Virus record (IMG/VR): IMGVR_UViG_2859810971_000004
DNA from: a virus
Taxonomy: Duplodnaviria > Heunggongvirae > Uroviricota > Caudoviricetes
Length of the DNA stretch: 24,933 nt
Direction: 5' to 3' (one strand)
Part shown: positions 6,001-12,000 of the stretch, in pieces
Position numbering within the stretch: position 1 is the first letter of the stretch
How the letters are laid out: the number at the start of each line of letters is the position of its first letter
Position numbers: made by a program

Positions 6001-9000
6001 GACTGGCACGTCTTCGTAAGGAGCTGAGGCTACGCTGTAAGCAGAAACGCAAGTTCAGAGCGACTACGAACCCGAACCACAATCTGCCAGTTGCGCCAAA
6101 TCTGCTGAACCAGACGTTCGCTCCTACAGCACCAAATCAGGTCTGGGTGGCGGACCTGACGTATGTTGCCACACAGGAGGGATGGTTGTACCTCGCTGGT
6201 ATCAAAGATGTTTATACGTGCGAAATTGTCGGCTACGCCATGGGAGAGCGCATGACAAAAGAGCTGACAGGTAAAGCCCTGTTTATGGCGCTCAGGAGCC
6301 AGCGCCCACCTGCCGGGCTAATCCACCACTCTGATCGAGGTTCACAGTACTGCGCATACGATTACCGGGTCATACAGGAGCAGTCTGGTCTGAAAACATC
6401 AATGTCGCGTAAAGGTAACTGTTACGACAACGCTCCGATGGAAAGCTTCTGGGGAACGCTGAAAAATGAGAGCCTGAGCCACTATCGTTTTAATAACCGG
6501 GATGAAGCCATCTCAGTAATACGGGAATACATTGAGATTTTCTACAATCGTCAGCGTCGTCACTCTCGTCTGGGGAATATCTCCCCGGCAGCCTTCAGGG
6601 AAAAATATCATCAGATGACTGCTTAAAAAAAGAACAAATGGTAGTGTCCGCTATTGCCAGTACACCTCAGCATTCCTCACGATGTGCGAATAAAAAGCCC
6701 AAGCATTGCGCCAGAGACATGAGCATCCGGCACCCCGGACAGGGCGCAATATGACCCCGGTAATGAATGCTCTGAACATCCCGTAATGAAAAATTGTGGG
6801 GATGCTATATACGTTCCGGTGGGAGTACTGGGCACTGAAATCCCTGATATCGTGTTCTCTGGCGATCCGGGCAACAACAGCCCCAGGCTGTAACGCCTGC
6901 TTAGCCAGACGGACCTTAAATTCACGGCTATAGCTGGTTCGCCGTTCTTTTCGTAAGCGCCCCGAGAAGTACGTAGCGTAAGGATTATTTTACAGACGAG
7001 AAGTTCCAGGGCAGCAGTTCATGCACTTGGTTCGACGGCCAGTCATTGAGCTTCTCGATCACTTCGCGCAACCAGTCCTCCGGCTCCACTTCGTTCTGTT
7101 TGCAGGTGACCAGCAGACTGTAGATGATCGCCGCACTTTCTCCTCCCTTGTCTGAGCCGAAAAAGAGATAATTTTTTCTTCCAACCGCCACCGATCGTAA
7201 CGCGTTTTCACCGATGTTGTTGTCTATTTCCACCCAGCCGTCACGACAGAACTCGTTCAGCGCATTCCAGTGATTCAGGATATAGTCGAACGCCTTCGCC
7301 ATCTCCGCATGTTTCGACAGCGTTTTCCTCTGCAACTGTATCCAGTCGTACAACGACTGCATCAACTGGACGCTTCTGGCTTTTCTGACTGCAAGCCGTT
7401 CCTCTGCCGGACTGCCACGTATCTCCGCTTCTATGTCGTATAACTCTGCTATCCGTCTGAGCGCTTCCTGAGTCATTTCTGTCGGACGGCGCACATCCTC
7501 GTCATGGATTTCTCGGCGGGCGTGGGCCAGGCACCCGGCTTCCTTCACCCGGCCCGTTTCGTACAGTACGTTATAACCTGCATAGGCATCAGCCTGCAGT
7601 ACGCCCTGATACTTTGCCAGGTGGAGCTGCGGATGTTCTCCTTTGCGATCTGCCGAATACGCGAACCAGACGGCTGCCGGCAGGGATGAACCCGCATTAC
7701 GATCATCCCTGACGTATACCCACAGACGACCCGTTTTCGTCTTTCCGTTCCCCGGGGCCAGTACTTTCACCGGAGTGTCATCTGCGTGCACCTTTCCTGC
7801 CTCCAGAACATAGTCATTCAGCGCTATATACAGAGGACGGAGTTTGTCTGCCATTTCTGATACCCAGCGCACCATGGTATTACGGCTCAGCTCCACGCCC
7901 TGTCGCGCGTATATTTCTGACTGGCGATATAAAGGGATATGTTCCATATATTTGCTGACCAGGATCCGTGCAAGTAACCCTGCACTGGCATAACCGCGTT
8001 CGATCGGTTTAGGAGGAAGTGGTGCCTGAACGATGACATCACACCGGCTACAGGCCAGTTTGGGACGTATGGTTTCGATAACTTTAAAGGCGGTATTAAT
8101 GATATCCAGTTGCTCTGAGATTGTTTCCCCCATTTCTTTCAGAACACCTCCACAGGCCGGGCAACTGGTTTCAGCAGGCAGAAGGCGATGTGTCTCCCGG
8201 GGAAGTTCTGCCGGCAGCGGTTTTCGTGAAGATTTTCGTCCCGGGGATTCAGGCTTACTGGCGATCGGGTTTTCTGACGGGGGACTGGTGTCAGGTGAAT
8301 CTGTGACTGACGATGCATCTTCCAGAAGATTTCTGGCTGTGTTCAGCCGGTTTTCCAGTTCCGACAGTCGTTTTTCTGCCTGTCGGATCTGATTTTCAAG
8401 CTTATGACGCTTTTTCTCTGAACTCTGGCCGAACAACATACGACGCAACCTGTCGAGTTGCGCTTTCAGCCGTTCAATTTCCTGCTCATAGCCCGCGACC
8501 TGACAGGCATACTGTCGAAGCCGACTCTGTTGCTTACGCAACATGGCTTTAAGCAGCTCAATATCATCGGGGAGTTCATTGTTCATTCCCTTGTTTTATC
8601 ACGGGTTATATCCGGATGCCAGGCCGTTCTGTCCGTTTGGGATGTTGCCACGCGATCCCCTCCAGTAGCATGGATAACTGAGCTGGCGTCAGGTGCACTT
8701 TCCCTTCCCGGGTCACCGGCCAGACGTTTGGCGAACAGGCATAACCCGTCACGATCGGCCCACAGTATTTTCACCATTTTGCCACTGCGGCCCCGGAAGA
8801 CGAAGATATGCCCGGAGAACGGGTCATCTTTCAGCGTGTTCTGCACCTTCGAAGCCAGGCCATTGAAGCCACAACGCATATCTGTGATGCCAGCGATGAT
8901 CCAGATTTTGGTACCGGTCGGCAGCGTTATCATCGGATACCCCCTTTCATTTCGCGGATTAGCGCCCGTAACAGTTCCGGAGTGAGAGGGTCAAACAGTT

Positions 9001-12000
9001 TTACCACACCTGATTTAAGATGCAGCTCGCACCGTGGGACGTTTCCGGGAGCCCCCTCAGGGCGCTCTGAGGTGTACTGGCAATTGAGGTGTACTGGCAA
9101 TAGCGGACACTACCATTTGTTCTTTTTTTAAGCAGTCATCTGATGATATTTTTCCCTGAAGGCTGCCGGGGAGATATTCCCCAGACGAGAGTGACGACGC
9201 TGACGATTGTAGAAAATCTCAATGTATTCCCGTATTACTGAGATGGCTTCATCCCGGTTATTAAAACGATAGTGGCTCAGGCTCTCATTTTTCAGCGTTC
9301 CCCAGAAGCTTTCCATCGGAGCGTTGTCGTAACAGTTACCTTTACGCGACATTGATGTTTTCAGACCAAACTGCTCCTGTATGACCCGGTAATCGTATGC
9401 GCAGTACTGTGAACCTCGATCAGAGTGGTGGATTAGCCCGGCAGGTGGGCGCTGGCTCCTGAGCGCCATAAACAGGGCTTTACCTGTCAGCTCTTTTGTC
9501 ATGCGCTCTCCCATGGCGTAGCCGACAATTTCGCACGTATAAACATCTTTGATGCCAGCGAGGTACAACCATCCCTCCTGTGTGGCAACATACGTCAGGT
9601 CCGCCACCCAGACCTGATTTGGTGCTGTAGGAGCGAACGTCTGGTTCAGCAGATTTGGCGCAACTGGCAGATTGTGGTTCGGGTTCGTAGTCGCTCTGAA
9701 CTTGCGTTTCTGCTTACAGCGTAGCCTCAGCTCCTTACGAAGACGTGCCAGTCGGTCACGACCAACGATGATGCCATTCTCTGCCAGCTCCGTCTGGAGC
9801 CGCCGGGTTCCATATGTTTCGCGAGTGCGGATATGTGCCACCTTAATCTCCGGTTTTAGCCGCTCATCACTTTGTTTTCTGTCTGAGGGTTCATGCTGTA
9901 CCCAGTTGTAATAACCGCTCCTGGATACACCAAATACCTGACACATCGCTTCAATGGGAAATTGTTGTCGCCATTGTTCGATTAACGCGTATTTTTCAGC
10001 GACTCCTGTGCAAAATACGCTGTTGCTTTTTTTAATATATCTCGCTCAAGGCGAGCTTCATTTAACGCCTTACGCAGTTGCAGAATTTCAGATTCCAGTT
10101 CAGCCACCGTGCGGGAACCAGGAGTACCGAGCCCTTTTCTGGCGGCGGTAACCCATTGTCCTAAAGTGCCTTCAGGAAGGGATAATCGGGAAGCGCCTTC
10201 ACTGATCGAAAGTTGATTTTCAAGAACCGTTCTGACAGCTTCGGCTTTGAACTCTTTAGAGTAACGTTGGGTTTTTCTGCTCATTATTAGCTCCTTCTGA
10301 TGCCATTCTATTTCAGGAAGGAGTGTCCATTAAACTCAGGCTACCTCAGTTTATCTTCAAATCTTAAACGCAGGGCATCAGGCAAATAAGAACGGAAGCA
10401 GGGAATATCTTTTGTTGTCTGGGAATTCATCGTTCGTGTCCATCAATATAGATGGGCGCGATTGTTGCCAGACAGGACAATTTTCACAAGACGTCGCTGA
10501 TGGGGCGCTTACTGTTGTTCTGAGGTGAGCATATCACCTCTGTTCAGGTGGCCAAATTCAGTGTGCCACTTCAAATTAAGCATTGCCAGAATGATTACAT
10601 ACCAGCGTTAATGGCTAACCAACGAAGCCAAGGTTGGTAATTAAGGAGTTCTCCACGGGTGAGGTGGAGTGCGTGCGCCGGACACGGGTGAGTATCCGGC
10701 ATGTTCTTTAAAAATCTGAATACCTTGACTCAAAAATCATTATTGAAATTGTAGTCCATGAGATACTCATTTTTACAGGAGGGGCATTGAGTTTTCGTAT
10801 ATTTATCGCCTTCCTCGATAGGGAAAGGTTGCAATATAGATATTGCTCTCTTCGCAAAACATTCTGGACAAAAATACATGGTAATCTTGCCAGAGCTAGT
10901 ATTGCACTGTCTGGCATACACAATCGTTCCAGTAATCAATTAGCGAGGTTCGCAGTCTTCACTTTGGAACTTAAACTTTTCTATCTCCGTGAGTTTTGCT
11001 TTGAGCGCAGCCTCATTGCTTTTAGAGATTGTCAGCTCATCAATGAGAGACAAATATTCAAGCTGAATGCTTGACAACTTAGAGTTTATTTCAGACACAG
11101 CGCGATCAACCTCAGCCTGAGTTTTTGCTTCATTGAATAATTTTAACATTGATGCAGTCTCTTTGAGAGCTGACATCGCTAATACATCACTTGCTCACTC
11201 TTCTTATTGTTGGGGTATTCAGATTATACAAATTTCTTGTTGTTGGGGAATAACAGGAACCACCTCGCCTGACGTAGTTAAAAGCAGGCACACAACGCGA
11301 AATGACGCGGCGGTAAGTATGGCGGAGTTATTCCTTCCCCGTTGAGGACACCGGGTTGTCAGGTTGACCATACGCTTAAGTGACAACCACGCCACAACAC
11401 TCCATGTTGATTGGTACCTTTGGCGGCATCAGTTTCATTGCTGGCTGATGTCCGCCCTTTTTAAAGTGAATTTTGTGATGCGGTGAATGCGGCTGAGCGC
11501 ACGCGGAACAGTTAAAAAGCGATTAGTTCCCACGTATCGGGTGGTTATGGGTTTCCCTGTATCCGGCGTTAATTGTTAACTGGTTAACGTCACCTGGAGG
11601 CACCAGGCACCGCATCAACAAAGTTCACTTCGGTGATGAAAGGTAAGAGAAAATGTTGAATGTAGCTATTGAAAACCAGAACGGGTGGAATTATAGTGCA
11701 TCTGCACCTCATAAAACGGGGGCCGGGCGTGGAAACCCGAACGTTACTCGAGCGCATAGCCGCGCTGAAGCGGTTTTTTTATGCGTAATGCACAGCTCCA
11801 TTCAAATTATGGTGGGATGTGCAGGGCAGTCGCAAGACTGGCCGGGTTCTCGAGTGACCGGTATTTCCACCCCTGTACGTCTCACCACCCTTATGGTCGT
11901 GGAAAACCTCGGTGGTGAGTTAATTAACTTATCACTCGAGGATGCCATCATGGCTACTATCCCTGCCCTTTCTCACCCTGACGTAACCATCGAAAACGGT

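Follow-up and report, generated by a model that had tools for sequence, protein, structure and literature searches.

A decayed ISSfl3 copy with a shared 20-bp tnpB deletion in an IS600-rich prophage remnant of Shigella flexneri

Introduction

Insertion sequences (IS) of the IS66 family have IS679 and IS66 as prototypes (Han et al. 2001; Gourbeyre et al. 2010; see also the citations in PMC6778807). These prototypes have three open reading frames (ORFs) in the order tnpA-tnpB-tnpC, a DDE transposase TnpC, terminal repeats that begin with GTAA, and 8-bp target duplications. Both prototypes are different elements from ISSfl3. A literature search on ISSfl3, IS679, and IS66 TnpB found incidental mentions only. 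Intact ISSfl3, as present in Escherichia coli including enteroinvasive E. coli (EIEC), is 2754 bp long and contains tnpA (675 bp), tnpB (348 bp), and tnpC (1602 bp). A 2734-bp variant is carried by the Shigella flexneri invasion plasmid pINV and is entered as 'ISSfl4 ORF1-3' in the pCP301 record. Here, we describe an ISSfl3 copy in the IMG/VR record IMGVR_UViG_2859810971_000004, a stretch of 24,933 nucleotides assigned to Caudoviricetes that is called the window, at its full length, throughout this text.

The element in the window is a degraded copy of ISSfl3 and a member of the IS66 family. The name follows the NCBI pipeline, whose label for it in records of E. coli and Shigella is 'IS66-like element ISSfl3'. 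At the nucleotide level, the retained parts are 99.7-99.8% identical to copies whose TnpC is named 'IS66-like element ISSfl3 family transposase' by NCBI, which bears indirectly on the ISfinder convention of more than 95% DNA identity to the reference of a named element. Like intact ISSfl3, the window copy has the same gene order, the ATGA overlap of tnpA and tnpB, and inverted repeats starting with GTAAGCGCCCC, but it lacks 20 bp of tnpB and about 455 bp of tnpA and has gained an IS600 and a 17-nt IS600 tip within tnpA. It has the 20-bp deletion, the 116-aa ORF2/TnpB, and the base T1693 in common with the 2734-bp pINV variant; A615, the other base that marks deleted copies, falls at a position that is missing from the window copy and hence has no score there. 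The pINV variant is uninterrupted and has an intact tnpA, whereas the window copy sits in the chromosome, inside another ISSfl3, and is interrupted by IS600. Taken together, it is very probable that the locus holds a decayed ISSfl3 that shares its 20-bp tnpB deletion with other copies and that is both nested and split by IS600. The element is of an ordinary, already catalogued kind, and the genome is one known for IS expansion and decay (PMC7373316).

The tnpB frameshift

An earlier note on this DNA, made from the sequence alone, had claimed that the tnpB ORF is of normal length with an unconserved last third, and that the adjacent frame encodes a TnpB-like C-terminus. Both claims hold. The called ORF (8583..8933, minus strand) measures 351 bp and encodes 116 aa, against 348 bp and 115 aa for the reference gene, and the Pfam family PF05717 (TnpB_IS66) matches its residues 9-73 only, which correspond to profile positions 2-66 of 101 (E=1.2e-24). 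An overlapping ORF in the other frame (8606..8752) matches profile positions 70-100 of the same family (E=1e-4). A tblastn search with wild-type TnpB placed aa 1-71 at 8933..8721 and aa 77-115 at 8725..8609, in different frames and both at 100% identity. Residues 1-73 of the called product are wild type and residues 74-116 are out of frame; the stranded wild-type frame (8606..8725, minus strand) encodes TnpB aa 77-115 (VWPVTREGKVHLTPAQLSMLLEGIAWQHPKRTERPGIRI) and ends with the original TAA at 8606-8608.

The note had further pointed to a small out-of-frame deletion right after the residues KRL. Nucleotide alignment to three intact copies located it as a single 20-bp gap at 8726/8727 (minus strand): the reference reads GCCAAA-CGCCTGGAACGGGGCCGCTT-CGTCTGG and the window reads GCCAAA-CGTCTGG. 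Placement of the junction is ambiguous by 2 nt, with CG at both ends. Imperfect 7-nt direct repeats (CGCCTGG/CGTCTGG) flank the deletion, and KRL is still encoded because the retained repeat CGTCTG re-encodes R-L. This repeat signature suggests that the 20 bp may have been lost by replication slippage between the two repeats. Chance is excluded as an explanation of the pattern: each half of tnpB agrees fully (100% identity) with the wild-type protein, and hundreds of independent assemblies contain this junction.

The frame that is entered after residue 73 is open for about 60 codons in the wild-type gene and meets no stop before the TGA within the ATGA (8583..8586) that starts tnpC. Since the shifted frame stays open up to this ATGA, the tnpB ORF looks normal and is accepted as an ordinary TnpB by gene callers and RefSeq. 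Annotation as an intact tnpB and tnpC, which the note had predicted, is indeed what the records contain: WP_005048975.1 is unflagged, and the corresponding locus of the S. flexneri chromosome L023 is called as a 116-aa TnpB and a 533-aa TnpC.

Different small indels are found in many singleton tnpB alleles of E. coli, Salmonella, and Shigella, all of which run into the same alternative frame. Such singletons (P0032, P0033, P0035-P0037, P0039, P0041, P0042, and P0046) are ORFs of 105-123 aa that are annotated as TnpB and end at the tnpC ATGA. Some of these indel alleles may be sequencing errors, and some resemble the homopolymer errors of old draft assemblies.

Conserved residues lost from TnpB

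Across 20 homologues with 61-81% identity, the residues F76, W78, G84, T89, Q92, L93, M95, L96, and W102 are invariant. Among 39 more diverse homologues, F76, W78, and W102 are invariant, and P79, G84, A91, Q92, L93, L96, G99, and P105 are at least 90% conserved. Most of the best 150 of 18,753 family matches reach to about profile positions 108-113. The note had named reference tnpB genes with the called C-terminus as what would speak against a frameshift. Taken narrowly, Shigella 'reference' tnpB genes do share this C-terminus, but the IS66 family at large does not, and therefore the frameshift reading stands.

The frameshift deprives TnpB of its conserved C-terminal third, with F76, W78, G84, T89, and the Q92-L93-x-M95-L96 helix. 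AlphaFold models of TnpB were obtained from a run with 20 close homologues (predicted local distance difference test, pLDDT, of 57) and from a run with 39 sequences (pLDDT 70; predicted template modelling score, pTM, of 0.62). The latter model, of moderate confidence, has strands at residues 43-47, 53-60, and 63-70 and a helix at 90-97, and everything past the last strand is removed by the frameshift. A Foldseek comparison of the model with the PDB gave no resemblance (best E=0.1, template modelling score 0.37 or lower), and a sequence search of the PDB with TnpB returned nothing significant. The fold thus points to the secondary-structure elements that are missing, but to no function. Judged from the residues that are missing, the truncated TnpB has probably lost its function.

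The lost stretch QLSMLL (TnpB aa 92-97, encoded at 8645-8662 in the stranded frame) appears similar to a beta-sliding-clamp binding motif. According to PMC3971601, beta-binding motifs can occur in TnpB proteins of the IS66 family.

Distribution of the deleted allele

The exact 116-aa product is encoded on 384 contigs. NCBI/RefSeq holds it as WP_005048975.1, AAL72460, AAP17438, and ABF04166, with pCP301, S. flexneri 2457T, and 8401 as sources. It is titled 'IS66 family insertion sequence element accessory protein TnpB' there without a pseudogene flag, and is also entered as 'ISSfl3 orfB'. The deleted allele occupies at least five distinct sites in S. flexneri, all with different flanks, so the tnpB lesion is not the private decay of this copy that the note had implied. 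On pINV the allele is found next to ospI and next to ospC4, and further chromosomal sites are next to sbcB and inside a prophage. The copy next to sbcB has a clean 8-bp target duplication, GAACAAAT. The copy next to ospC4 is structurally complete (2734 bp, versus 2754 bp for the intact element), and in its pCP301 counterpart the depositors annotated ORF2 as 351 bp. Deleted copies share A615 and T1693 as differences from the wild-type copies.

In plasmids, the 120-mer spanning the junction, matched as a single piece at 99% identity or more, was found in S. flexneri only, and the wild-type allele was found in S. dysenteriae, S. boydii, and a few S. flexneri. None of 5,426 complete E. coli genomes gave a single-piece junction match. 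Among 185,579 species-representative genomes, two contain the junction: the first is titled S. flexneri, and the other is titled E. coli and has a 4.44-Mb chromosome. At the pINV site next to ospC4, EIEC (L003) has the wild-type allele and S. flexneri (L015) has the deleted allele with the two single-nucleotide polymorphisms (SNPs), which makes the S. flexneri copy at this site a candidate ancestor of the deleted copies. Repeated slippage was ruled out as the origin of the common deletion, since none of about 719 E. coli genomes with this tnpB stretch have it. The simplest reading is that there was a single deletion event in the S. flexneri lineage and that the window copy inherited its result instead of acquiring it. 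After such a single origin, the whole deleted element would have spread to further sites.

Disruption of tnpA and the nested structure

The reference tnpA has 675 bp and 224 codons, and the window copy keeps only nt 1-82 and nt 538-675. The note had described a tnpA of about 46 codons before the IS600 end. This remnant is present (8930..9067, minus strand; 45 codons and a stop, read from 9067 to 8930, TnpA aa 180-224 of 224), but the gene is split rather than simply truncated, with the left end of ISSfl3 at 10349..10512 (minus strand). This left end (positions 1-164) is 100% identical to positions 1-167 of the intact 2754-bp copy, and the bases at 10346-10348 (TGA) are common to the ISSfl3 left part and the IS600 tip. 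It begins at 10512 with the left inverted repeat GTAAGCGCCCCATCAGCG, followed by an 82-nt leader and the tnpA ATG at 10430, so that the repeat and the first 27 tnpA codons survive beyond IS600. Compared with the intact copy, about 452-455 bp of ISSfl3 (positions 165/168-619) were lost at the IS600 junction. The ATGA stop/start overlap of tnpA and tnpB (8930-8933) is present, and the IS66-type gene order is kept. A scan of 8500-10600 found no sigma-70-like promoter.

The element inside tnpA is a complete IS600 of the IS3 family (9085..10348, minus strand, 1264 bp), which is also named IS600 by the NCBI Prokaryotic Genome Annotation Pipeline (PGAP). No 3-bp target duplication surrounds it, which is consistent with an associated deletion. 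A second IS600 of 1264 bp (5406..6669, plus strand) is inverted relative to the first and lies 283 bp beyond the ISSfl3 right end. This one is a simple insertion with a 3-bp duplication, GCA (5403-5405 and 6670-6672). The two copies are 99.6% identical to each other and have the TGAGG... inverted repeats of IS600, and each encodes a 100-aa orfA and a 272-aa orfB product. Next to the first copy lies an extra 17-nt IS600 right-end tip (9068..9084, minus strand; TGAGGTGTACTGGCAAT on the plus strand), which forms a tandem pair, at 100% identity, with the genuine tip at 9085-9101. The tandem (9068-9101) is found only in the window and in L023, and in a search of PLSDB plasmids for the tip-duplication junction no plasmid covered it. 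Possibly, an IS600 inserted into the terminal repeat of another IS600, and recombination or deletion followed. A 56-aa ORF across the tnpA/IS600 junction has no exact match on record.

The right end of ISSfl3 (6953..6984, minus strand) carries the right inverted repeat GTAAGCGCCCCGAGAAGT at 6953, with the outer end GTAAGCGCCCCGAGAAGTACG. The left and right repeats are both in place at a distance of about 3.56 kb, and each begins with 5'-GTAA, as in the IS66 family. The right inverted repeat is directly abutted by a fragment of another ISSfl3 in the same orientation (6845..6952, minus strand), which comprises positions 357-464, or tnpA nt 275-382. Because this second tnpA piece abuts the repeat, ISSfl3 is taken to have inserted into another ISSfl3 at position 356/357. 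The window copy has no 8-bp target duplication, its outer flanks being GAACAACA and GAAAAGAA; the mismatch would follow from the insertion of ISSfl3 into ISSfl3 and the later loss of the inner junction, which IS600 activity may have removed. L023 has the same arrangement as the window. In the sister strains L016, L017, L018, and L021, ISSfl3 positions 1-464 are uninterrupted at this place, and neither IS600 is present.

Status of tnpC and of the element

The tnpC gene (6985..8586, minus strand) encodes a full-length DDE transposase of 533 aa with all four Pfam domains of IS66 TnpC proteins (LZ, zinc finger, DDE_Tnp_IS66, and C-terminal element; PF03050, PF13005, PF13007, and PF13817). PF03050 alone is matched over profile positions 2-283 of 284 (E=4.8e-101), and 530 of the 533 residues are identical to the TnpC of an intact E. 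coli copy. Codon 359 (7510-7512; ISSfl3 position 2195) encodes E in the window and K in all other copies compared, namely wild-type copies, deleted copies, and L023.

With tnpA destroyed beside IS600 and TnpB truncated, the window copy is probably immobile on its own, as the earlier note had also supposed. Autonomous transposition would be excluded because both of these functions are affected, if all three ORFs are required. For IS679, Han et al. 2001 reportedly found that all three are needed and that tnpB mutants are transposition-negative. Mobilisation in trans is conceivable. The remaining role of the copy is probably that of repeated DNA for homologous recombination and rearrangement. In strain M90T, the type III secretion system island is lost most often by recombination that involves two pINV copies called ISSfl4 (PMC5629016), which may be the same element as the 2734-bp ISSfl3 variant.

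Alternative explanations

Several other accounts of the tnpB allele have to be weighed against a single deletion that was inherited by the window copy. It is next to impossible that the gap is an artefact of sequencing or assembly or that programmed frameshifting brings TnpB back to full length. The many singleton alleles with 1-nt indels that enter the same frame, some of which look like homopolymer errors, give such ideas a starting point, as does the still intact wild-type C-terminal frame downstream. A 20-bp gap is not of the homopolymer type, however, and it recurs in hundreds of assemblies including finished genomes. As to recoding, no slippery heptamer was seen between 8727 and 8752, and a +1 shift in this interval would still leave out six to seven conserved residues (ERGRFV). 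It is also extremely improbable that the window copy alone gained both lesions. IS decay is common in Shigella and the tnpB and tnpA lesions occur here side by side, but the identical junction is present at five or more other sites, among them a complete copy with intact tnpA and tnpC. Moreover, the deletion is linked to two SNPs that are more than 1 kb apart, and the stranded C-terminal frame has no further mutations.

Two further accounts accept that the deletion is shared and differ in how it came to several sites. Gene conversion among existing wild-type copies, in place of transposition, is rather unlikely. Copies that are more than 99.5% identical are good conversion substrates, and the site next to ospC4, which is wild type in EIEC and deleted in S. 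flexneri, demonstrates that alleles can differ at one site. Conversion would nevertheless require four or more independent events, each covering at least positions 615-1693, and among the copies examined there is no mosaic in which the deletion and the SNPs disagree in either direction. That the deleted element is still functional and spread by itself, either because the N-terminal two thirds of TnpB suffice or because the new ATGA improves TnpC translation, is quite unlikely. This idea fits the five or more sites that the element occupies, of which one shows a clean 8-bp target duplication, and the right end in the window, joined to another ISSfl3, is a transposition junction. The linked SNPs are common to all deleted copies, as expected from one founder, and the deletion creates a tnpB/tnpC ATGA like the natural tnpA/tnpB overlap. 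The lost third, on the other hand, carries many family-invariant residues, and the phenotype reported for IS679 tnpB mutants (Han et al. 2001) also argues against function. Complementation in trans by a wild-type or related IS66-family TnpB explains the spread equally well, as wild-type alleles exist in some Shigella (P0023), and all IS types have expanded in Shigella regardless of their quality (PMC7373316). The bolder proposal that the deleted ISSfl3 is the form that multiplied in S. flexneri, after it had lost the C-terminal third of TnpB, is unlikely as well.

Some points weigh against our account of a decayed copy with an inherited deletion. The requirement for TnpB is drawn from the reported work on IS679 and may not transfer to a C-terminal truncation. 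That truncated TnpB does not function is a judgement from sequence, and the spread to many sites could mean that the variant still transposes. As to the order of events at the locus, the state of the sister strains, with positions 1-464 contiguous, could be ancestral, or it could instead stem from an intermediate via recombination between two copies of positions 357-464.

Genomic setting and nomenclature

The copy lies on the minus strand of an IS-riddled, ipaH-carrying prophage remnant in an S. flexneri chromosome. The window is collinear with the S. flexneri chromosome L023 at 99.84% identity, and the genes neighbouring the element were matched only in S. flexneri chromosomes. The ipaH gene is located at 2942-4657, and the other content includes Rha/Ash, Q-like, and DnaC-like phage genes. 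A 224-aa ORF at 15409-16083 was considered as a second tnpA and ruled out, as it encodes a DUF1133/Q-like phage protein. The 25-kb window contains four IS600 and a fifth IS600-like element (about 490-1753, 5406-6669, 9085-10348, 13833-15095, and 23398-24661), together with IS2 (12538-13810) and IS1 (about 16927-17694). The locus is a hotspot of IS-mediated rearrangement that varies among S. flexneri strains (L016-L023).

The nomenclature of the element is not uniform. What the NCBI pipeline calls ISSfl3 is 'ISSfl4' in the pCP301 record, and ISSfl4 is also used in the Shigella literature. One Shigella paper counts ISSfl3 and ISSfl4 as separate IS, and the clash could distort IS counts.

Significance

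Nothing reported here is surprising to a specialist, and the value of the finding lies mainly in annotation. WP_005048975.1 comes from a frameshifted gene, and hundreds of S. flexneri assemblies list it as an ordinary IS66 TnpB. The open alternative frame over the last third of tnpB conceals frameshifts in tnpB generally: any +1 shift in this region yields an ORF of normal length, so that pseudogene checks based on length fail to flag it. For Shigella, IS copies that are dead in this way keep their importance as substrates of recombination.

By its apparent spread, the TnpB-truncated variant offers a small natural experiment on the question whether TnpB works in cis. If the deleted ISSfl3 were indeed the form that multiplied in S. 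flexneri, the C-terminal third of TnpB would be dispensable for transposition in the IS66 family or would be supplied in trans, and the new ATGA may couple translation of the truncated tnpB to that of tnpC. The natural allele would then be a ready-made probe of the role of TnpB in IS66-family elements.

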